Origin: Candidatus Saccharimonadota bacterium
Lineage (GTDB): Bacteria > Patescibacteriota > Gracilibacteria > Absconditabacterales > Absconditicoccaceae
Length of the DNA stretch: 32,000 nucleotides
Assembly (NCBI GenBank): GCA_030429145.1
Contig: JAUIDC010000001.1
Location: 300,001 to 332,000, forward strand
Direction: 5' to 3'
Below, in pieces: positions 11,442 through 31,077 of the stretch. Below the pieces are notes generated by a model. That model had not been told where the DNA came from and made no database searches. It saw only the letters and a list, made by a program, of their open reading frames with translations. A program made the position numbers and the translations under genes. The first letter of the stretch is position 1. Each line of letters begins with the position of its first letter.

Positions 11442-11515
11442 AGCGAGCAACGGGACTTGAACCCGTACAGGCAGAGCTGAATTCTGCCATGCTACACCAA
11501 TTACATCATGCCCGC
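11442..11515 (-). tRNA. tRNA-Gly (anticodon UCA), the UGA decoder
   Basis: RC reads GCGGGCATGATGTAATTGGTGTAGCATGGCAGAATTCAGCTCTGCCTGTACGGGTTCAAGTCCCGTTGCTCGCT. Anticodon stem GCAGA/TCTGC, loop AT-TCA-GC. G1:C72, C2:G71, G3:C70 and U73 match bacterial glycine identity. 74 nt, normal cloverleaf (7-bp acceptor, 5-bp T stem), so not tRNA-Sec. Confidence 0.85.
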
Positions 11516-11570: not shown

Positions 11571-12332
11571 TTAATCCACAGCAACTCACCCATACGCACG
11601 CAGTTGTTCTCTGATCTGTATAAGTCTTTCTAGATAACTGTCTCTGAAAAGATCTACATTTGCAATGATGATATCTTCATTGCTTTCCAAAAGTGTTTGC
11701 AACTGAGTCAATGCTGTTACATATGCTTGTAGTCTCACTATAATAGCTTGATAGGCGTTCATGGAAATTCTCGCCTTTGTCTCACATGATCAAGCATCAA
11801 GAGAACGAGCGAGCCCCCTCTCCATAAGTCCACCATCGGCATCAGCAAGACCTTGAAAGAACTCATTGTCCGCCGCTGTTTTCTCAGCAGCACACTGCTG
11901 GTAGTCTTGCGATGCAGTCTCGCGATCGAGTTGCAGATCGGCTATAACCTGTTCTCATGCAAGTACAATTTTATTGACATTTTTGACATAGGTCTGCAGC
12001 GCTAGTCTCTTATTCGACGCATTTTGCAAATAGGCAACAACATTGTTTGCAAGCACTGCTTGTGCATCTGATAAAAGCTCTGTCGCTTGATTGAACGAGA
12101 TATTTGTCGCCACGCTCCTCTCTGTCAGCTCAAGATGTAACATCGTCACACCGATGACCGAATCATCGACAAGCCCCTTCTGCTGATAGACAGTAGGAGC
12201 AACCTGTTTCTGTGATGTCCATACGCCAAGCCACGAACCACCCTCTGCTGAGCGTGCTGAAAGTATAAGTGCAACGCACCCACCCAGCAATACCAGATAG
12301 AATAAAGGATGACTCACTACTTTACGTAGCAT
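11571..12332 (-). CDS. Bitopic membrane protein of unknown function (253 aa), last gene of the pilus-like operon
   Basis: Track ORF 11955-12332 extended through TGA 11955-11957, 11790-11792 and 11586-11588 to TAA 11571-11573 (every codon checked by hand). N-terminal TM is HPLFYLVLLGGCVALILSA. The rest is helical and Q/L/A-rich. Confidence 0.65.
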
Positions 12333-12359
12333 AACATAAATATAATGTAATTAAATTTT

Positions 12360-13466
12360 TTATCCACCCGCACCGATAGTATTTACCATATCGGCCATTG
12401 GCAAGAAGATAGACGCCACGATCACACCAATCACTACCGCAACTGATGCAAGAAGGATCGGCTCGACCAAACTCATCAGTGTCTTTATCTTTGTGTCTAA
12501 CAGATCGTTGTAGAACTGCGACATCTTTTCAAGGACCGTATCGATATTACCCGTACGCTCACCAACCAGTACAATCTGCACCAAGATCGGATCAAAAAGC
12601 TCTGACCCTTCCATACTATCCGAGAAGCCAAATCATGCTTCTAGGTCTCTTCTAATATCGAGTACTTTCTTTTTATAGTGATAGTTTGCCATAATAGCGG
12701 CAATCTGCTCAAGTGCTACTGTCGGGCTTACTCCAGCCTTATAGAAGTCACCGAGAAGCTTTGAAAATCTATACAGGTAGAATGTTTTGATTGCATCTTT
12801 TGCTGCTGGTATCTTCAACACAAGATCATCGATAAATATCTTGAAGAGAAGCATATTCTTATACAAGAATCTATAGAGCATAACTAAACCAAAGATAAGA
12901 AGCCCTATCCATCGCCATGAGACTTTCATAAAATCCGATGCTGCGATCACAAATTTTGTTACCGACGGCAATAGATCTGGATCGGGGAAAAGCGTTACAA
13001 TAGACGGGATCACCTTTACCAATAGAACCGCCACAGCAATAATAGCGAAGATCAAAAGGATAATCGGATAGGTCATTGCACTTTTAATCTTATTTCTCGT
13101 CTTCTGATAGTTCTCCAACTCCTCTGCAATATTGAGCAAAATTTCTGGCATATTACCAATCGACTCTGAAGCTCTTACGAGTTCTATCTCATCATTTCCA
13201 AAGAAGTGACGATATCTTTCCATCGCTGTCGCTAAACTAATACCTTCATTAATCTGTTCGAGCAACCCTTGGATGATAATCTTCATACCATAATTTCTCT
13301 CCGAGTGTAGGATAGAGTTAAGCGCCTCTTTCAAACCGAGTCACGCCTTTTGAGATACAGACAAAAGCCTGAAGAATACTGTTTTATTCTTCACTGTTGC
13401 ACGATTGAGACTAATCATCAATCATTCTAACATACTTGGCTTATTGCTCATCTTTGTATCAGCCAT
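12360..13466 (-). CDS. pilC: Type IV pilus / T2SS platform protein (PilC/GspF family)
   Basis: Joins track ORFs 12360-12614 and 12633-13334 and an N-terminal extension through TGA 12633-12635, 13341-13343 and 13422-13424. ...FFRLLSVSQKA-G-LGLKEAL... and a duplicated GspF-type domain with three TM spans. 368 aa. Confidence 0.9.
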
Positions 13467-13490
13467 GGCTGTATAATAACATTAAATAAA

Positions 13491-14813
13491 CTATTTTTCT
13501 ACGTCTTTATGTTTTATCAGTCTGTAGAGTTCTTCCAGAGTAATCATTCCTTTTATCACCTTATAGATACCATCTCTTTCCAGGTTTGACATTCACTTAC
13601 TCAATGCAAATTTTTCTATCTCAAACGCTGTCTTTCCTTGCAACAACATGTTCTTCACATCATCAGTATACTCCATCACCTCAAAGATACCTATACGTCA
13701 CTTATATCATGATCCTCCACACACTGCACAGGTCTCTCCTGTCTTTGGATCTTTTCCTGAACCTACATGTAGTTTTCCGTCGAGGAAGTTTTGCCATTGC
13801 TCATTAGTGATACTTCTTTTTTTCATTTCATTGACAAGCGTATCTTTCGGTATACGAGAGATCTCCTCTCTTGCCCAGAAGTATTGCTTATCACTCTTCA
13901 TATCTACACTATGTCCACAGTTATGACATACTCTTCTTGAAAGACGCTGTGCCATTACGAAGTTAAATGTACCAGCAAGCATAAATGGCTTTGCACCTAG
14001 ATTGAGTACACGGGTAATGGTTTCTGCTGCTGAGTTCGTATGGATCGTAGAAAAGACCAGATGTCAGGTCATCGCCGCTTCCATCGACATTTCAAGCGTC
14101 TCCTTATCACGAATTTCTCAGACCATGATAATATCCGGGTCTTGACGCAGTGCGGCACGAAGACCTTGGGCAAAAGTATATCCAATATCTGCTCTCACCT
14201 GTGACTGAGAAAGACCGTCCATTTTGTTTTCCACCGGATCTTCATAGGTGATAATATTCACATCAACTTTGTTGATATGATCCAAAGCAGCATAGAGTGT
14301 CGCTGTTTTACCGGAACCGGTAGGTCCGGTATTAAGAATAATACCGTTTGGATAGTCTAGCTGACGTAGGATTTGCTCTTCAATCGTTCCCTCGATACCG
14401 AGTTCATTAAGTTTTTGTGTTTTTTTCGACTTATCCACAATACGCATCACGAGCTTCTCTCACCATACAGTTGGAAGTGTTGACGCACGAAGGTCGATCT
14501 CCTTATTGGTCAGTGTGATAGTAGAAACACGGGCATCCTGTGGCACACGTTTCTCATCGGGACGCATCTGCCCTGACTCAATCTTGAACTTCGCGATGAC
14601 TGACTCGTGAATATTTTTCGGATACTGGATAAGCTCAAAAAGTAGACCATCCACTCTCAGTCTTATTCTTCCGAAATTTTCAAACGGCTCAATATGGATA
14701 TCCGATGCTCCTTCTTCTACAGCGATCGTCAAAAGGTTGTCGAACAACTTAATCGTGTCCGCCTGTATGATCGACTCTTGTAGATTCTTCTTAAACTGAG
14801 CGATATCAGCCAT
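13491..14813 (-). CDS. pilB: Type IV pilus assembly ATPase (PilB/GspE family)
   Basis: Joins track ORFs 14460-14813, 14118-14450 and 13707-13982 through TGA 14460, 14118, 14064, 13707, 13698 and 13593. Walker A GPTGSGKT, Walker B DPDIIMV-G-EIRD, His box MT-G-HLVFSTIHTN, tetracysteine CHNCG...CAVCGGS-G-YK-G-RIGIFE. 440 aa, TAG at 13491-13493. Confidence 0.9.
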
Positions 14814-14842
14814 AGGTAAAGATTGAACGTAAAAGGTAAATA

Positions 14843-16255
14843 TTATTTGACGCCACAGAGACCTGCATCATCAAGCATTCTGTGGAGCTCAAAGAGCTTC
14901 GTTGTTTGTCTATATCTTGGGTATTGTGAGTATTCTGACTGTACATCTTCGAAGAGAAGTGCTAGGTCTGTAAGGTCCTTACTTTTTTCATTACTGAGTG
15001 TTGCGATACTTCCAAACTGCTTAGTATTTTCTTGCAGATATGAAAGTGCATTGTCTGGACTCATCGCCCTATCAGCAACAAAACAGTCTTTTCCAAGAGC
15101 CATAGCGATCTCATTGAGTTCTTGATCAGTGATAGCTCTACCGAACACGTCTATCTGAATCTTTCCGATGTATTGATCAGCATTACCCAATGTTCCAGCT
15201 TGTTTTTCAAACGAGAACTGTTTCACATTGATCACAGGAGGAAGATACTGAAGGAATGCTCTCAGCTGTCCTGCTGTATTGTTACCAGGGAAACCAAGGG
15301 TATATGCAAGTAGTGGAATAGATCTAAATTTCTCTCTAAACTTGAAGTAACAGAAAGCAAGATTGTTATCAGAACATCCTACTGTAGAGAGAACTGCATT
15401 ATCGATCATCGTTTCTGTTATTTCGATAGGTGTCTGTTCTGTCGAACCTTCCATCCAAAGATAGAGACTCTTTCCAATAGCTTGGTCTATATTTTGGCCA
15501 GTGTATGTTGGTTCATTTCTGAGCTTCAACTCCTCCCAAAGATTGTAGAGATACTCATTGATGAGAGAAATATTTCCTCTGTTTGACGTGATAGAGAGCT
15601 TATCTACTAACATCAGGAATGAACGCTTATTGCTCGAAGAGAATGATACATTGATAGGGATAACAAACGATCCATTTTCATTTTCAGTTAACGTACCGAT
15701 ACTAATATCATTGATTTCGTTATACTGTGTATTTCTACCAATATCTCTAAAGAAGTCTGTTCGGTGCGAGATCAGATTGTTATCAATATATGGGTTCTGA
15801 TCGAGGTATTTCTGACCTACAATCGAGAGGTCTATAGTGTCAGAGTATCTATCCTTCCAGATGTTCATAGAAGGGAAAAGGATGTATTGAAGGAAATATG
15901 CATATGGCTTTTGCAGTCTCTCAAAATAGTCGATAGAGATATCTTTTTCTGTCAGCGCCTCCTTATGGATAGCGATCAGATCATCTATATCTGTTACATC
16001 TTGCATAGCCTCTGCTGTCAGTGGATTGGTTTTCAATCCTTGCAGATTATAGAGTGATATGTCTGTCAGACTGCTACTCATAGCATTGAGCGATCTAAAG
16101 TTTCTTACAGCAACGCCCACAAAGAAAATTGCAAGAAGAATCGAAATCACCAAAATGACTTTTGCTATCCTCAGCACAGTAGTTTTTTTGAGAGAGAAAG
16201 AGAATTTCTTCTTCTCGTCACTGCTCTTGGCTTTAAAGATATTAAGTGATATCAT
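14843..16255 (-). CDS. Large bitopic membrane protein of unknown function (470 aa)
   Basis: Uninterrupted 470-codon ORF. Short cytoplasmic N-terminus, one TM (IAKVILVISILLAIFFVGVAV), about 420-aa external domain. Ends 30 nt upstream of pilB. No family recognised. Confidence 0.8.
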   Translation of the reverse strand: MISLNIFKAKSSDEKKKFSFSLKKTTVLRIAKVILVISILLAIFFVGVAVRNFRSLNAMSSSLTDISLYNLQGLKTNPLTAEAMQDVTDIDDLIAIHKEALTEKDISIDYFERLQKPYAYFLQYILFPSMNIWKDRYSDTIDLSIVGQKYLDQNPYIDNNLISHRTDFFRDIGRNTQYNEINDISIGTLTENENGSFVIPINVSFSSSNKRSFLMLVDKLSITSNRGNISLINEYLYNLWEELKLRNEPTYTGQNIDQAIGKSLYLWMEGSTEQTPIEITETMIDNAVLSTVGCSDNNLAFCYFKFREKFRSIPLLAYTLGFPGNNTAGQLRAFLQYLPPVINVKQFSFEKQAGTLGNADQYIGKIQIDVFGRAITDQELNEIAMALGKDCFVADRAMSPDNALSYLQENTKQFGSIATLSNEKSKDLTDLALLFEDVQSEYSQYPRYRQTTKLFELHRMLDDAGLCGVK

Positions 16256-16285
16256 GGTAGTAATAATAAGAGATAATAAAGTATA

Positions 16286-17866
16286 TTATTGCTGTGTTTG
16301 GTCAAAGTCATAGATTTCTCTTTGCGCATTCTTCTGTAGTGGAAGCGTGAAGTCAAATGCTGAGTTGTTTACCACGTACTCTTGGCTACCTATTCTGAGT
16401 TTCTTTTTGTTTACTTTTAGCGTCTGGAGATTGATTGGATCTGCCACAACGAACTTACTTTCTCTCAGGAGATTGATAATCTTCGTTGCAAGATAGATAT
16501 GAGGATTGAGGATACCTTTGTTCAAAAGCTGGAGCTCATCCTCTTGGAATGTATTGATATCAATACCAAATGAGATGTTGTTCTGTAGTGGATCAAAGTT
16601 TCTAATGTTGATTGCTAGACTTGGAAAGTCACTGTCCTCAAGCTGAGCGTCAAGGTAACTCATCAATATTGGGAAGACTCTTCTATCGATAGACGCATTC
16701 GCGTCTACATATGTATAGTAGTTTGAAAAGTCGTTCCCCTGAGGCATGGTACATGTATCAGCATTTACATATGGATTGAAGTAACATGTAGTAAGATAAT
16801 TTTGTATATCCTTTTCACCTCTACTTCTATATGCAGTGAGCATAGCCTCTACCTGTGATGTTGGAAGAGATATAAAGCTACCGAACTGCTGGATAAATGT
16901 ATCAAGATTGGTAAAGAACGTCAGTGCTGTTGAAAATCTAATAGCCTCTACCGCAATCAATGATTTCTGCAATGAGTTGTCCATAAAGGTTGACTCTGCA
17001 AAAAGCTGTACATCCTTCGGGAAGAAACCGTATCCTCCGATATCTTGCTTGATCTCATCAAGTTTCTGATATTGTGTAGCTGTGCTTCTTGCAAGCTGTT
17101 CTACACTCCTGTCAAGCACCTCTTTCTTAATAACATAGCTCAGAGACTTGTCGCTCACGATGGCATTGAGAGACATCTCTGCATTTGCTGTAGTAAGACT
17201 ATCAATACCATATGTATCAGGATTTTGTCCAATAAGAGTACTAATAGTCGAATATGACTTATCTATCGTTGGCATGTAGTAGTCAACCATGTTTGGTACG
17301 CTCTTTCCTTGGATGTGACGAAGATATTGTTGGAACACATAACCAACAAACGCGATAAGAAGAAACACGAGAGTGAGCATCACTACTCTAGTCATCCTCT
17401 TGAAAAAGAGTCTTTCGAAAACTGCTTGCTGCATCGCCTTATCTTTTGCAGAATCTTGTTTCTCAACCTTGAAATCTATCTTACTCGCCTCTTTTTTTGT
17501 CGCAGTGAAAGAGTCTACCGCAGCCGTCAATCCTGACAGATCCAAATCGTCATCACCAGTTGCTTTCTCCTCTGCCTTTGCATCTGCTTCTTGTGAGTCT
17601 GTTTTTTGTAGTTCAGCATTGTCAGCTTTTTCCTCTGAAGCCTTAGCCGCTGGCGCTTCAGCCGCTTCGTTTTTTACTGGCGTCTCATCTGGTCATGCAA
17701 AAAGCTTTGAAGATGTTTCCTGTAGACCGTCTGAAGCATTTTGTGCTTCAGCAGTCTCAGCCACATTTTCGTTTTGTTTACCACCTGCGATATCATCGAG
17801 AGAACCAAGTGTTCCCTGTGACTCCTGTGGTGTGTTTTGGTTTGTGTTTTTTGTATTTTCTGCCAT
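16286..17866 (-). CDS. Large bitopic membrane protein of unknown function (526 aa) with acidic low-complexity N-terminus
   Basis: Track ORF 16286-17545 (TTG artefact start) extended in frame through one TGA to the ATG at 17866. MAENTKNTNQNTPQESQ...AEAPAAKASEEKADNAELQKTDSQEADAKAEEKATGDDDLDLSG..., then a TM (VVMLTLVFLLIAFVGYVF) and about 350 external residues. Confidence 0.7.
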
Positions 17867-17901
17867 CTGATAGAGATCAGCATATAAAGATTACACCTAC
17901 A

Positions 17902-17930
17902 ATGATACGGAGCGCTCGAAATTAATACAA
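17902..17930 (-). promoter_or_regulatory. Predicted sigma70-type promoter of the pilus-like operon
   Basis: Minus strand TTGTAT (17925-17930), 17-nt spacer, TATCAT (17902-17907), about 35 nt upstream of the ATG at 17866. Confidence 0.3.
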
Positions 17931-18012
17931 ATTTTGCCTCTCCTCTCTCCTATGCTGATAGATTTTCACTAGACAATTTCCAAAAAATAATTCTAATAAA
18001 TAAAAAAGAGGA

Positions 18013-18453
18013 CTACTCCTCTCTTGTCTTCAATGCGCGCTTAATATCACCTATCCTATATCATTTCTGCGATATCTTTGCGATAATATCGAAACCATCT
18101 AGTCCTTTTTTCTTTAATTTATCAATCTCTTTTTGGATACGAATGATGATCCCCTCATTGATATCCTCTTCCAGCTGACGATAAATCTTTTCCACGAGCT
18201 GCTTATCAACTCACTTCTGGATGAGTTTTTGCTTAATCGCATATGGCGGTTTTCATTTTTTCACTGCCTCTGACTGAAAATAAAGACGAGTAAATTGCTC
18301 ATCATTGACCCATTTCATTTGCTTCAGCCGTGCTATGGTATGATCTATCTCATCTTCATTATAGTGCTTGGTCAAAAGCTTCACTCTGAGCTCTTGCTCG
18401 GTTTTTGGATAACGATGAATATATTTGAGTGCGTAATCTTTACAAGATGCCAT
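18013..18453 (-). CDS. recX: RecX-like regulatory protein
   Basis: Track ORF 18253-18453 extended through TGA 18253, 18211 and 18061 to TAG 18013-18015. MASCKDYALKYIHRYPKTEQELRVKLLTKHYNEDEIDHTIARLKQMKWVNDEQFTRLYFQSEAVKK-G-KPPYAIKQKLIQK-G-VDKQLVEKIY... shows the repeated three-helix RecX pattern. 146 aa. Confidence 0.6.
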
Positions 18454-18595
18454 GAAAAAGTGTTGTATTATAAATATGTCGTGTCACATATAGTAATGAT
18501 TTTATAAGAGTTTTCCATGAGAAGAAACATCTTTATCTTGTAAAAGAGTAGAAATATCATATCCATTATTTAGATAGTTATTATTGGTTTTTTTG

Positions 18596-19141
18596 ATGTA
18601 CGTAGTGTTTCGCAAAAAAGTGGCATTTACCCTCATTGAGATGCTTATTGTCATAGTGATAATAGGCATTTTGGCGGCGGCGCTTGTGCCAAGACTTGCT
18701 GATATCCAGTGAAGAGCAAGAGATACAAAAAGAAAAGCAGATCTTAGTAGTATGGTAAATGCTCTCGAGATATATTTTGCCGATTACGGTAGTTATCCTT
18801 TGCAAGCAGACAACACATATAGAGCAAGCTACCAATCTCAACCATGGATAAGTGAGTTGTCTGGTATCATGACCTCTCTGCCTGTCGACCCTATAAACAA
18901 TGGCTTTGGATGATGGCCAGCAATATGAGCCACGGGACACAAATATTTGTATTCAAATGCACCGTCAACCACTAAAGTATATGCGCTCTCTTCACTCTTA
19001 GAGAATACGAAAGACCCAGAAAGATGCAGTCTCCAAACAGGAGCCCCTTACAAATACTTATGGAATGGCACTCGGATAAATCGATGTGGACAGTATAGCA
19101 GTGGCGTCTATGTTGTCTGACCATACAGATTCGGTCAGTAA
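18596..19141 (+). CDS. Type IV pilin / pseudopilin (181 aa), class III signal peptide
   Basis: Absent from the plus-strand track (four in-frame TGA). MYVVFRKKVA-FTLIEMLIVIVIIGILAAALVPRLADIQ-G-RARDTKRKADLSS... is a prepilin N-terminal methylation motif with Glu at +5. Two Cys near the C-terminus. Confidence 0.8.
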
Positions 19142-20636: not shown

Positions 20637-21815
20637 TTAATAGTTCGACTTTATATTAAATGTCGTTTGTAGGTCGTAGAAAATATTTCCTAGAACAAGC
20701 GTGCTACCAAGTTTTGTCAGCCATGAAGGCGCATAGAGGTGGGTAGAAACGAACAGTTTGATGTGTGGATTAATTTGCATGTCATTTTCCGACCAGGCGT
20801 AGACAGGATCCTTTATTGGATAGATCTCCATTCTCCAGTTGCTCACAGTAATGTCTCCTCCAAAAAGATTAACCCATCAGTCATTTTCATCAGCTGGCAA
20901 GTTATATCCGCTATAAATAGCCGGATTCACGCCGGTACCGTTACAGATAAACCCCTTCTCGTAGTCACATGCTCGCGTGTCGGTGTAGCCATCATACATG
21001 TAGAGATTTTCCGAATCTCCTGCATCAAACGAGTGCTTTGCACCAGCATCAAACCCCCTTAGCTGAAGCATCTGTACTACATAGAGTTTCTCGTAGTCTT
21101 GATATGTACCATTGTTATTGACGTCTGTCTGCTCCACCAACTTTCTTCTCAGCAATAGCCTTGATTTTTTATCTTTCGAGATCAGATACAGCTCAGGGAT
21201 ATTCTGATTGTCAGCAATAGCTACAGGTCATTTTCCGACATCGGTATCATCGTCATCACCAATAGGTGATGCAGTTTCATCAGCATTGTCTTTCACATCG
21301 ACAAACTGTCGTCTGTATTCACCGAATGATTGTGGTTCACCTGCAACCACACAGCCTGCCCCAGATGCTACGTCAGCATTCTCATTGACGAATGATTGTG
21401 TACTGTCACTCGAGTATGGATCCACGCTCGAACAGCGATACGGGATATGCCACCCACTATTGGTAAAAGAACTACCCCATGTCTGTAGTGTATTGAGGGT
21501 ATTTTGATTTCCATATGCAGAAAAAAGAGAACAATATCCTGTTGTCCCCTGAGACCAGCCAGTCATCAAACCTGCTGAGGTACAACCGTACATTCTCCTA
21601 TTGAAATATTCTTCATAGTCTATGGTATAATCTCTCAATAATATATTGAGTTTTTCTACCATCGTATAGGTAGTGGTCAACAAATAACTTCTCGCATCAA
21701 ACTCTCTTTTCACATTGATCATCCTTGTATAGATGGTCATCACTGCAGAAAAAAGCAATCAAAAAATCACGAGCGCCACAACCATTTCCAGAACCGTAAA
21801 TGCTTTTCTTTTCAT
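20637..21815 (-). CDS. Large pseudopilin / minor-pilin-like protein (392 aa)
   Basis: Joins track ORFs 21228-21758, 20877-21155 and 20637-20846 and the N-terminus MKRKA-FTVLEMVVALVIF-G-LLFSAVMTIYTRM (TGA 21759-21761 inside the hydrophobic helix). Prepilin-type N-terminus with Glu at +5. Confidence 0.75.
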
Positions 21816-21920: not shown

Positions 21921-22529
21921 ATGACACTTATCCCTACTATCATTGATAAAACGCCACAGGGAGAGAGAGCCTATGATATCTACTCTCGCCTCCTTGAGGA
22001 TAGAATTATTTTCGTGAGTGAACCTATTACAGATCACCTAGCTTCGACAGTGATTGCTCAGCTCCTCTATCTTGAAAAAAAAGATCCAGACAAAGATATC
22101 ATCATGTATATAAACTCTCCGGGAGGAAGCATCACTGCAGGTATGGCGATCTATGATACGATGCAGTTTGTGCACTGTGATATTCAGACGGTCTGTGTGG
22201 GTATCGCTGCAAGTATGGGAAGTATCCTGCTTATGGGAGGACACAAAGGCAAAAGATTTATCCTCCCAAATGGAGAAGTTCTCATCCATCAGCCGCTTAT
22301 CCAAGGTGGCGTTGGTGGCCAAGCGACAGAAATTGAACTAATCGCAAAACAGATGGTTAAAACGAGAGAAAGACTGAACCATGTGATCGTAAAACACACA
22401 GGTCAGCCTTTCGAAAAGGTAGAGAAAGATACAGATAGAGACTACTGGATGATCGCTGAAGAAGCGGTCGAATACGGCATTATCGACAAGATAATTACCG
22501 AAAGACCAAATACTAAAAAGAAAAAGTAA
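21921..22529 (+). CDS. clpP: ATP-dependent Clp protease proteolytic subunit
   Basis: [31 protein letters not shown]... Catalytic Ser in GIAASMGS, His in LIHQP, Asp in DTDRDYWM. Start trimmed from track ORF 21891 (GTG) to the canonical N-terminus. Confidence 0.95.
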
Positions 22530-22718: not shown

Positions 22719-23417
22719 CTAGTAGAGCATGTCACCTCTGTAAAAGAGGCGCAGAAAAAGCTTACCACTACTATCCAACCCTTGAGCAAGCTCATTTTGT
22801 ATATTAAGATAGGCGTTATACTTTCCGTATGCTCACCATTGTCACCACTCATAGTAGTTATTGCTCCAGAAACACGCATGATATGCTCATGTCCCCTCTA
22901 CTCCTCCATACGAGTTTATTGAACCATCATTTTCCATCTGTGCTCCTACCCATGCGTAGTCGCAGTTTCCATAGGTAGCACAGCTAGCATACATATACCC
23001 ATGAAATGCCATGCTATAATAGTAACGATGCGCACCCGTTCCATAAACAGACTCTACGTCGTAAAATCACGAACTCGTGTACCCGCCAGCTAGAAGCGGA
23101 TCTGTTCCTCGTCACCCTGTCCAAAATGCACATGGATGTCTTGCAGAAACTTGTGGATCACTTGGAATAGTCGTCATAATATTCCCCGTCTGCAGGAAAG
23201 CCAAACTTCTCGGATAGTCCGCATGATCTGTGTAGTATATCCTTATACCATTGGTCAGAGTCGTTATATCTGCCTTCCTTTTTACATTACGCGCTCTACT
23301 CTGAATATCTGTCAGTCTTGGCACGAGAGCTGCGGCCAAAATACCGATAATCACGATGACTATCAGCATTTCGATCAGCGTAAATGATTTTCGTTTTTGT
23401 AAACGACTATAAGACAT
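22719..23417 (-). CDS. Type IV pilin (232 aa), paralog of the 18596 pilin
   Basis: Track ORF 23112-23417 extended through TGA 23112, 23067, 22887, 22842 and 22833 to TAG 22719-22721 (codon by codon). MSYSRLQKRKS-FTLIEMLIVIVIIGILAAALVPRLTDIQSRARNVKRKADITT... The C-terminal half is Gly/Tyr/aromatic-rich with four Cys. Confidence 0.8.
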
Positions 23418-23949: not shown

Positions 23950-24462
23950 TTATTCTCCAAACAATCATACCTGACCACGCACTTTTTCTCTTATGTTCTT
24001 TTCATTTACCGGTAGAACTATCTTAGGCTGCTTCGCAGCCGCACTACGTGCCAACTTATCTACTCTATTATTGAGCTCGTCATCTGCATGTCACTTTACC
24101 CAATGTCGCTCCAATGTGAAGAGAGGCAATAGCTCATTGAGCTTCTCCCAGAGATCTCTGTTTGCAACTGGCTTTTTATTTGCCAGTCTTCGTCCTCTCT
24201 GTATTCGATATTTCAATCTTTCTACTCCCTCTTTTACATATTTACTATCCAAATGTATATGAATATTTTCATTCGGCGCTCCTTTTTCTTTGAGATAGTG
24301 CAATCATTCGATAACAGCCATAAGCTCCATTCTATTATTTGTCGTCAACGGCTCTCCTCCAGAAATCGACTTTCTCTTTCCTTCAGCAATTATCAAAGCT
24401 CCTCGTCATCACTGACCAGGGTTTCCCAAACTACTTCCATCTGTATAGATCTGTATCTTCAC
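23950..24462 (-). CDS. rnhA: Ribonuclease HI
   Basis: GTG start at 24462. [59 protein letters not shown]...[23 protein letters not shown]. Tandem TGA at 24406-24411. 170 aa, TAA at 23950-23952. Confidence 0.85.
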
Positions 24463-24643
24463 TAATTTCGTAGTTACCTTGTAAACTGCTTCACAATATA
24501 TACATATAAAACTAATAAACAACTCATATCATCCTTTAACTACGAGCTGTGTGGTATAGGTCATATCCGGCATGTGGTATTACTATTTGTAAATAGTCAT
24601 ACCGAAAATCTCTATAGTTCTACCAGCAACACACACCCATCTC

Positions 24644-25453
24644 ATGCATTATATTCTTCTCATCCTTATTAATTTACTTGCTCTTAACTTCTGGCTTTGG
24701 CTCTTTCAAAGCATCTTTCATCGAAAACAACACAAGCTTTTTCTCTTTTCAGTCGTCCTAATTATGGGGGTAATCAGCGCAGGATCTCTGCTCCTCTACC
24801 CAACACTTCTTCGTTATTTTCCTGTGGAGACATTTACCGCCGTCACATTAACACGACAGAACATCGCTTTCTTGATAGGCTACGTAGGCATCATTTGACT
24901 AATCTTACTCGTTCTCGGAAGGAGAGCGACTCTCACACACAAAGTAGTCATTCGGCTCCTTGCTTTCGGAGGACTCGCTACTTGAGTTGCTCTTTGATAT
25001 CTTACTCTACCAGTCTGAGTTGCACTTTATTTTCTCTGTATCGCCTGAGCAGAAGAGTTTCTCAAGCTTAGCGTCTGACAAAGTTTCTTCTCCCAATACA
25101 AGATCAGCAAGAAAGATTTACTGCTCTTTGCGATACTCTCTGCCATTGGATTTTCACTCATAGAAAATGTTATCTATCTCTTTACCAATCCAAATATCGG
25201 TCTTGCTGTTTCGAGAAGTCTCACCACAGTCATGATGCACATCATTTTCACTGGAAGCATCGCCTATCTTATCTCTACTCGCCAACACAAATGACGATAT
25301 GTCGTCGCATTTCTCCTGGGAATGGCACTACACCGATCATACAATACTTTCGTGAATTATAATAACTCATGGTTTACAGCTCTATTGATACTATGAGGTT
25401 ATTTTGTAGTAAGTTATTTCTTGTATAAGAGTGATAGATTATATTTGAAATAA
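24644..25453 (+). CDS. PrsW/CPBP-like intramembrane metalloprotease (269 aa)
   Basis: Track ORF 24644-24898 extended through eight TGA to TAA 25451-25453. Polytopic, with motifs AEEFLKL (EExxK), FSLIENVIY, MMHIIFTG and ALHRSYN (HxxxN). Family call is from motifs only. Confidence 0.6.
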
Positions 25454-26195: not shown

Positions 26196-27681
<1,486 letters not shown>

Positions 27682-27772
27682 ATAAAAAATCCTGACTAAG
27701 TCTCTTTGCTATTCTATCAGCTATTAATGTTCATCATCAGCTTACGCTGACGAGCAGGCTATACCTACTAAA

Positions 27773-27888
27773 GGTGGCATCAATCTACTTTCCCAGGGCC
27801 ATTGACCCAAGTATCATTGACCGGATAAGGCTTAACTTCTGTGTTCGGAACGGGAACAGGTGTTTCCCTCATCCGCATCGATACCACC
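27773..27888 (-). rRNA. rrf: 5S ribosomal RNA
   Basis: RC reads GGTGGTATCGATGCGGATGAGGGAAACACCTGTTCCCGTTCCGAACACAGAAGTTAAGCC...CCTGGGAAAGTAGATTGATGCCACC. The terminal helix closes the molecule. Confidence 0.9.
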
Positions 27889-27946: not shown

Positions 27947-30896
<2,950 letters not shown>

Positions 30897-31077
30897 GTCT
30901 TTTAAAAATATGATACGTTTATCTGTTAATGGTCCACATCTGCATCGCTAACATTCTAAAGCATAGAAAAGTCAGACACCCCTATATCTATTGCTAGGTA
31001 GAGAGGCCATCTGACCTTGTTCTCGTTAAAGAAAATCCTACGATTTATCTTGTTAGTTTTCTCGAGCAGTGACTACG

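Follow-up and report, generated by a model that had tools for sequence, protein, structure and literature searches.

Here we present an analysis of a type IV pilus (T4P) operon at positions 11571-17866, minus strand, of a 32,000-nucleotide (nt) stretch of DNA (the window, to whose positions all coordinates refer) from an SR1 (Absconditabacterales) bacterium. Judged from its sequence, the locus is a genuine T4P core assembly operon of a candidate-phyla-radiation (CPR) lineage in which UGA is read as glycine (code 25). Besides pilB and pilC it carries three genes, hyp526, hyp470 and hyp253, whose predicted products are accessory proteins of uncharacterised, lineage-specific families. The operon is a fusion of two modules, A (hyp526-hyp470) and B (pilB-pilC-hyp253), since the pair and the trio are each conserved separately across loci. 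We propose, with a probability of roughly 55%, that the products of hyp526 and hyp470 build a scaffold in the membrane, which would serve SR1 as a lineage-specific substitute for PilM, PilN and PilO. This functional claim rests on gene context and on an unconfirmed fold resemblance.

Gene calling with translation table 11 fragments the region, splitting pilB alone into several open reading frames (ORFs). Under table 25, five genes are obtained, all on the minus strand, in the order hyp526-hyp470-pilB-pilC-hyp253 and with intergenic gaps of 30, 29, 24 and 27 nt respectively. These ORFs reproduce exactly the coordinates of the original prediction, which had described such a five-gene unit with short gaps, and because the gaps are only 24-30 nt a single transcription unit is plausible. 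The code was checked against about 60 orthologs of pilB and pilC: eight of the nine in-frame TGA sites of the two genes correspond to GGN or TGA codons, and none to TGG. There is one in-frame TGA in hyp526, none in hyp470 and three in hyp253.

The identity of the locus is established by PilB, PilC and three pilins with N_methyl matches. The 440-aa PilB (13491-14813, minus strand; Pfam T2SSE, 3e-113) is an extension ATPase of the PilB/GspE type, with the Walker A and B motifs, His box and tetracysteine motif of type IV filament ATPases (Walker A at residue 163, Asp box at 227, His box at 251, CxxC pairs at 296 and 362), and its orthologs in 80 metagenome loci are 64-86% identical to it. It matches the NCBIfam PilB model with 5e-131 and the GspE model with 3e-129, in both cases under the equivalog cut-offs, because the N-terminal ~170 residues are missing: the alignment covers only positions 175-564 of the PilB model, that is, the C-terminal ~390, and starts at position 97 of the GspE model. 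The earlier suggestion that this is a short PilB without the classical N-terminal domains agrees with this partial alignment, and the predicted protein is an N-terminally short form lacking the N1/MshEN domains. PilC (12360-13466, minus strand) is a polytopic platform protein with two T2SSF domains (Pfam, 1.5e-50), matched over its full length by the NCBIfam GspF/PilC/ComGB models. The pilins lie beyond the operon. A 181-aa protein with a class III signal/N-methylation motif is encoded divergently from recX (18596-19141, plus strand; Pfam N_methyl, PF07963, 2.5e-07; T2SSG, 9e-4). The other two are a large pilin-like protein of 392 aa (20637-21815, minus strand; N_methyl, 7.9e-05; NCBIfam prepilin N-terminal domain) and a 232-aa pilin (22719-23417, minus strand; N_methyl, 3e-08).

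No window ORF was recognised as PilM, PilN, PilO, PilD, PilT or PilQ with Pfam and NCBIfam, and the original prediction had likewise seen no PilM, PilN, PilO or PilQ. PilD was not found among the scanned window ORFs, whose sole polytopic protease is PrsW-like, and PilM was found neither in the window nor in the neighbour lists of loci L001-L005, L068 and L069. PilM, PilN and PilO are widespread in CPR bacteria and co-localised with PilB and PilC, while PilQ is absent across CPR (PMC6744442); thus the absence of PilQ is ordinary and that of PilM, PilN and PilO is not. The replacement reading draws some support from this point, because these three normally accompany pilB and pilC in CPR and none is recognisable here.

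The two genes of module A encode bitopic membrane proteins. For hyp526 (16286-17866, minus strand, table-25 ORF), the predicted layout is a cytoplasmic tail of residues 1-152 (nt 17411-17866), a transmembrane (TM) helix at about residues 157-182, and a 345-aa ectodomain with invariant Cys361 and Cys372, in which a helical region is followed by a C-terminal core of two alpha-beta-beta units. The tail is acidic, of low complexity and rich in Ala, Glu and Lys, with a net charge of -16; the original prediction had noticed an acidic tail of about 110 aa, and the region proves to be N-terminal and cytoplasmic, not a tail at the C-terminus. In the family, which comprises 30 clusters and has neither a Pfam match nor a name, the tail varies from 30 to 185 aa and has a net acidic charge in almost every member. 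Some 20-30 residues ahead of the TM helix it contains short hydrophobic-acidic motifs that are conserved. The long tail of the window protein is taken as real because these conserved motifs precede the next possible start codon. The second gene, hyp470 (14843-16255, minus strand, table-25 ORF), encodes a short Lys-rich cytoplasmic N-terminus, a TM segment at about residues 27-50 that runs on as a long helix, and an ectodomain made of two alpha-beta-beta units parted by a helical insertion of ~110 aa, with a C-terminal helical bundle. Four cysteines are invariant (residues 294, 302, 391 and 467). The hyp470 family counts 61 clusters when grouped at 90% identity and, at 50% identity and E<=1e-3, 249 representatives; an exhaustive HMMER search with its profile widened it, to include forms of 700-780 aa, and reached no annotated family.

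Hydropathy, a positively charged N-terminal side and long helices continuing the TM segment in AlphaFold2 (AF2) models mark hyp526 and hyp470 as predicted N-in bitopic proteins. The hyp470 model is confident (predicted local distance difference test score, pLDDT, 83.9; predicted TM-score, pTM, 0.72), and its units comprise H158-170/E180-186/E196-207 and H327-336/E342-352/E361-373. The hyp526 model covers residues 108-526 only, having been made for the table-11 sub-ORF P0062, and is of moderate confidence (pLDDT 69, pTM 0.47); it contains the TM helix, a helical domain and the C-terminal units H290-304/E309-318/E323-333 and H348-362/E377-385/E388-403. The ferredoxin-like cores of PilN, PilO and GspM have the same secondary-structure order, alpha-beta-beta repeated twice. 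The modelled layout of the pair fits PilN/PilO in topology and in the order of secondary-structure elements, and it is on these two features that the weak resemblance to PilN/PilO, earlier noted from the sequence, rests. As had also been noted, both proteins are two to three times larger than PilN and PilO, which typically have ~150-220 aa: hyp470 has 470 aa, hyp526 has 526 aa, and their families range from ~400 to 780 aa.

Linkage provides the contextual evidence. A scan of species-representative genomes with the hyp470 profile gave 62 loci, in about 60 of which a hyp526 homolog lies immediately upstream of the hyp470 homolog, on the same strand and in the same order. Of the 62 assessable loci, 11 have pilB directly downstream of the pair, and two others have a genuine pilT directly upstream of it (TIGR01420, 383.7 bits, the cutoff being 319). 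Any T4P motor gene in the vicinity of the pair is directly adjacent to it, with 0 intervening genes, a distance of 23-218 nt and the same strand. The order hyp526-like, hyp470-like, pilB is kept even in L068 and L069, where all other neighbours differ, the genomes are UGA-recoded with 25% GC, the hyp470 homologs have 727-741 aa, and the hyp526 family is matched only with E values of 5e-28 and 3e-13. Because the pilB-adjacent state sits in the deepest branches of a rough neighbour-joining tree (L068/L069 and L061), as it does in the window clade, these sequences suggest that the hyp526-hyp470-pilB operon is ancestral and was later split in derived clades. Its persistence amid differing flanking genes would fit maintenance by selection.

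A reverse survey, in which 80 metagenome loci (many of them redundant) were fetched with PilB, revealed pilB-pilC-hyp253 as a near-universal unit: hyp253 directly follows pilC in ~59 of the 63 loci, many redundant, with enough sequence beyond pilC. Of the three unknowns, hyp253 is the one most tightly bound to the pilus core. Conserved linkage with pilBC, which had been put forward as one test of the proposal, therefore exists and is uneven, being near-universal for hyp253 and confined to a minority of loci for the pair.

The product of hyp253 (11571-12332, minus strand, table-25 ORF) has a signal peptide or signal anchor followed by an extracytoplasmic domain of ~200 aa that is probably helical on sequence grounds, with invariant His66, Cys147 and Cys183. 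Its family, seven close clusters extended to 34 distinct members (80% identity) from the fetched loci, mostly begins with a classic Sec signal peptide. Hence hyp253 is predicted to be secreted or signal-anchored rather than bitopic, and the single topology that the original prediction had ascribed to all three unknowns holds for hyp526 and hyp470 only. No Pfam match was obtained for hyp253, and 20 relatives scanned singly gave only scattered coiled-coil noise; profile matches to Vipp1/PspA in the Protein Data Bank (PDB), with E values of 0.4-2, were rejected as noise of the same kind. In several lineages (L080, L099, L104-L107, L114, L129, L132, L146 and L147) the pilB-pilC-hyp253 trio is followed on the same strand by a fourth gene, absent from the window, whose conserved product of ~394-403 aa is N-terminally anchored and helical-looking and has no family match.

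All three unknowns belong to families without relatives in the reference collections. hyp526, hyp470 and hyp253 have no match in Pfam, NCBIfam, PHROGs or PADLOC and none among PDB sequences, even with profiles from four family alignments; the absence of recognisable family motifs thus extends from the first reading to these databases, and no clear match to an unrelated family appeared. The labelled relatives of the three families all come from SR1/Absconditabacterales-type metagenome-assembled genomes, the remaining labels being generic or doubtful, and the families were not clearly found in BD1-5 Gracilibacteria. This confinement agrees with the earlier suggestion of lineage-specific envelope proteins. 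As far as we found, none of the three has been described in the literature. Their conserved residues point to folded extracytoplasmic domains.

Several observations weigh against a scaffold in the PilMNO role, beginning with linkage itself: no T4P motor gene lies beside the hyp526-hyp470 pair in ~49 of the 62 SR1 loci, and when the survey starts from pilB, only the two closest relatives have the pair upstream, so the association with a motor is not universal and could be historical. The PilM, PilN and PilO negatives cover the window, part of a ~0.94 Mb genome, and for PilM also the listed neighbourhoods. hyp526 and hyp470 show no mutual similarity, and none of the three unknowns is a paralog of another (hhalign probabilities <2%). 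Full-length searches gave no profile match to PilN (PF05137), PilO, HofO, T2SSM or T2SSL at E<=1, although Pfam does find the divergent E. coli proteins HofN (PilN, 8.9e-11) and HofO (HofO model, 1.4e-25), which served as a positive control. Foldseek searches of both models against the PDB returned no match at E<=0.001, and the C-terminal domain of hyp526, in a model with a pLDDT of only 69, lies nearer to phage tail-terminator folds (E 0.003-0.016, TM-score normalised to the target, TMt, <=0.42) than to PilO. A phage origin of this domain was rejected, there being no PHROG match and no phage context; a Foldseek search of the hyp526 model against BFVD also gave no match at E<=0.001.

The main rival is that hyp526 and hyp470 constitute a general SR1 envelope module, acting for example in the wall, in division or in surface-layer anchoring, with pilB adjacency as inherited synteny and hyp253 as the sole pilus accessory. 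The pair is universal and in most loci stands alone, amid ileS, femAB-like and yebC-like genes and recX; furthermore, no family or fold assignment links it to T4P. We nevertheless regard this alternative as doubtful, since same-strand pilB adjacency has survived in the divergent L068 and L069 loci despite their changed surroundings, and since a different motor gene, pilT, adjoins the pair in another clade. Independent pilB and pilT arrangements of this kind would not easily arise by drift in genomes of ~1 Mb that rearrange fast.

A second alternative is that hyp470 and hyp526 are true PilN/PilO homologs, extremely diverged and enlarged by helical insertions, so that the machine would be an ordinary PilNO system with an altered appearance and no substitution would have taken place. 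PilO was the sole T4P-machinery protein that Foldseek recovered, and it was seen with both models; these matches are non-significant (3jc8_Oa, E 0.84, probability 0.57, TMt 0.35; 5uvr, E 0.3, TMt 0.38). The topology, the TM segment passing into a long helix and the two alpha-beta-beta units of both models would all be expected of such homologs. Also, E. coli HofN and HofO cannot reach the solved PilN and PilO structures by PDB sequence search, which makes the silence of sequence searches weak evidence. In the pilB-linked clades, the hyp470 N-termini (MISLNIF..., MVTIGI[VL]PE[RK]) resemble the INLLP-type PilM-binding peptide of PilN, but the motif is not conserved family-wide. Against homology, too, the Pfam PilN and HofO models that detect HofN and HofO do not detect the SR1 proteins, and the alpha/beta cores, excised and with the hyp470 insertion removed, gave no Pfam match at E<=10; no PilM is visible; and the size difference is large. 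On balance we think direct descent from PilN and PilO unlikely.

A further possibility is that the pair supplies the diverged VirB8-like components of a Patescibacteria type IV secretion system (T4SS). VirB8-like proteins are bitopic and have an alpha/beta ectodomain, and the N-in VirB8-like proteins of monoderm T4SS, PrgL, TraM and TcpC, share this layout with hyp526 and hyp470. In ~16 of the 62 loci, from several clades (L003, L004, L005, L015-L020, L041, L046, L048, L049, L053, L055, L066 and L069), T4SS-like genes lie within 10 kb of the pair: a VirB4-like DUF87/TraG P-loop protein, a TraG/VirD4-like coupling protein (TraG-D_C) and faint T4SS_pilin matches, with a GH25 hydrolase as well. 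VirB8 and VirB6 homologs have been reported as undetectable in the class Gracilibacteria, presumably through divergence (PMC12102498). In no locus, however, do the T4SS genes adjoin the pair: 2.2-7.9 kb and 2-10 unrelated genes lie between them, often with a change of strand, and the pair, never beside virB4, adjoins T4P motor genes instead. The window has no T4SS genes, no match to the NTF2-like fold was found, and VirB8, TraM, PrgL and TcpC are absent among the listed Foldseek matches of both models. Shared nearness to the replication origin, as contig positions and published data (PMC12102498) suggest, may explain the co-location. A VirB8-like role is accordingly very improbable.

Comparison with characterised systems places the scaffold reading in context. 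In the type IVa machines of P. aeruginosa, M. xanthus and T. thermophilus, and in most CPR bacteria (for example in T4P loci 1 and 2 of Saccharibacteria TM7x), PilM, PilN and PilO likewise offer a pair of adjacent genes for N-in bitopic proteins beside pilB and pilC, and the progression from TM helix to long helix to an alpha/beta core in alpha-beta-beta x2 order is common to PilN/PilO and the SR1 pair. Unlike PilM, PilN and PilO, the SR1 proteins have no profile match, their ectodomains, larger by a factor of 2-3, include helical insertions and conserved cysteines of the disulfide type, no PilM is recognisable, and in most SR1 genomes the pair occurs apart from pilBC; unlike PilN, the hyp526 family has its disordered acidic cytoplasmic tail of 30-185 aa rather than a short PilM-binding peptide. 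A close analogy in gene content is to T4P locus 2 of the Saccharibacteria strain TM7x, which contains PilC2, PilB2, PilM2/N2/O2, recAX and one pilin (PMC11623550): the window has pilB, pilC, a pilin and recX, with the unknowns in the place of PilMNO.

Two further systems share individual traits with the SR1 operon. Like the ComG competence pilus of Firmicutes (ComGA, ComGB and ComGC-GG), it would build a monoderm-type filament with a short ATPase and neither PilQ nor PilMNO, and PilB and PilC match the ComGA and ComGB models (1.2e-68 and 2.1e-41). The differences from ComG are that PilB matches the ComGA model far less well than the PilB/GspE models and retains the tetracysteine motif, that three extra conserved envelope proteins are encoded in the operon, and that PilT occurs in related genomes. 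In type II secretion, GspL and GspM also form a bitopic inner-membrane pair with ferredoxin-like periplasmic domains, and the ATPase docks on a cytoplasmic region of considerable size in GspL. That region is folded and actin-like and binds the N1 domain of GspE, whereas the hyp526 tail is disordered and acidic and PilB has no N1; moreover, neither T2SSL nor T2SSM profiles match. Finally, in JAEDAM01, a sister CPR class that is also UGA-recoded, the recognised components are limited to PilB, C, D and T, and conserved hypothetical genes lie on either side of a contiguous pilB-pilC (PMC11393006). This likeness is one of description, and the matches of hyp526, hyp470 and hyp253 carry SR1/Absconditabacterales-type labels.

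If hyp526 and hyp470 do form a substitute scaffold, the machine could work as follows. Module B would supply the PilB motor without N-terminal domains, the PilC platform and the small secreted or signal-anchored hyp253, which is probably disulfide-forming and may work together with PilC or with arriving pilins at the membrane's outer face. Around the platform, hyp526 and hyp470 would assemble into a heterodimeric scaffold in the PilM/PilN/PilO role, their ectodomains, with invariant cysteines, helical elaborations and two alpha-beta-beta units each, spanning the wall zone and aligning the machine. The disordered acidic tail of hyp526, with its motifs ahead of the membrane, might dock the motor ATPases PilB and PilT or an unrecognised PilM. 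A bolder version of this scheme, which we offer only tentatively, is that PilM, PilN and PilO have been replaced by an unrelated three-protein set, consisting of a heterodimer of two large, disulfide-stabilised bitopic proteins and a small, probably helical secreted protein dedicated to PilC, in which the tail would recruit the N-domain-less PilB and PilT through a short linear motif. If true, that set would represent a new type IV pilus basal-body architecture, found in a predator or episymbiont of ultra-small size.

Host attachment, movement and feeding in CPR/Patescibacteria are believed to depend centrally on type IV pili, which have so far been genetically dissected only in Saccharibacteria, with canonical PilMNO. 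The 'vampire' predators Vampirococcus and Absconditicoccus, which are in culture, belong to the SR1/Absconditabacteria. If the SR1 scaffold differs, annotation pipelines would overlook essential pilus components clade-wide, and the PilB/PilC/pilin core could be served by non-homologous alignment modules. The present analysis provides candidates for the missing basal-body components of SR1, in the form of two universal families and one pilBC-linked family.

The original prediction also connected the locus to DNA uptake through recX (18013-18489, minus strand; Pfam RecX_HTH1, 1.1e-12, and RecX_HTH2, 5.7e-08, the tandem repeats expected of RecX), which it placed immediately upstream of hyp526 on the same strand. 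The strand is correct, but 146 nt separate the two genes, and recX ends in a stop codon that overlaps a terminator-like hairpin (18025-18004); recX is probably its own transcription unit outside the operon, to judge from these signals. A promoter-like element ahead of hyp526, TTGTAT-17-TATCAT (17902-17930, minus strand), found by direct reading, is indeed present as had been claimed, but it is weak: it matches the consensus at 8 of 12 positions, is not among the scanner's sites, and lies in a region where such sites are not enriched (28, against 22.5 +/- 4.6 in shuffles). The 40 nt ahead of the start codons (11571-17906) contain no obvious Shine-Dalgarno sequence for the five operon genes or recX, the leaders being AT-rich.

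That the pilus serves primarily for DNA uptake, as a competence pilus, seems to us improbable, and adjacency of recX is a poor sign of it. There is a regional association, in that recX occurs ~0.1-2.5 kb from the hyp526-hyp470 pair in 8 pilB-linked and 17 other loci (within the range L001, L007, L010-L066), and recAX forms an operon in TM7x T4P locus 2 as well. Additionally, dprA (DNA_processg_A; L068 9517-10515, minus strand) is convergent with pilB right after the hyp526-like/hyp470-like/pilB trio of L068, and CPR pili have widely been proposed to act with ComEC (PMC8080830; PMC6744442). However, the hairpin belongs to recX itself, and the orientation of recX switches: most pilB-linked loci have it paired divergently with rsmF, the window and L007 have it on the strand of the pair, and in the 17 loci without pilBC it is convergent, downstream of the pair. 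Neither comEC nor comEA is present in the window. Moreover, mutants of TM7x locus 2 lost thin pili and bound their host with reduced efficiency while competence stayed wild-type (PMC11623550). Since that locus is dispensable for competence, recX adjacency should be read with caution, and the proposed link to DNA uptake is weakly founded.

Downstream of hyp253, at a distance of 55 bp, a tRNA gene with anticodon UCA (11442-11515, minus strand; found by ARAGORN, with the label 'tRNA-SeC', and by the Rfam tRNA model) marks the boundary of the operon and has a promoter-like site of its own (TTGAAA-16-TATAGT, 11564-11537). Because TGA aligns with GGN codons in orthologs, it is read as most likely tRNA-Gly(UCA), the UGA decoder that would implement code 25. 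The recoding has left its mark on public protein predictions for the hyp families, which are often artefactual (P0062, P0092-P0098 and others) because table 11 truncates them at TGA. Table-4 predictions carry Trp where the lineage encodes Gly, as in 'SARSAKWGSWLG' compared with 'SARSAEGGSWLG' in the window.

Among the pilins, the 181-aa and 232-aa proteins have a near-identical N-terminal helix (FTLIEMLIVIVIIGILAAALVPRL...) and unrelated C-terminal domains, a pattern in their sequences that suggests a pilin N-terminus recently duplicated or recombined. Gly, Tyr and Trp are unusually abundant in the 232-aa pilin. The 392-aa pilin-like protein has a weakly ComGE-like N-terminus (NCBIfam) and an ortholog in the corresponding place in L001. 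The pilin genes are interspersed with those for ClpP (21921-22529, plus strand), RNase H (23950-24573, minus strand) and a PrsW-family intramembrane protease (24644-25453, plus strand), and this arrangement recurs in L001 and L002 at 40% identity, so that synteny of the neighbourhood reaches beyond the pilus operon. Beyond it lie the rRNA genes, all on the minus strand (large subunit, 27947-30897; 5S, 27772-27888; small subunit, 26196-27686), with a transcription order of 23S-5S-16S, as opposed to the canonical 16S-23S-5S, and ~85 nt between 5S and 16S.

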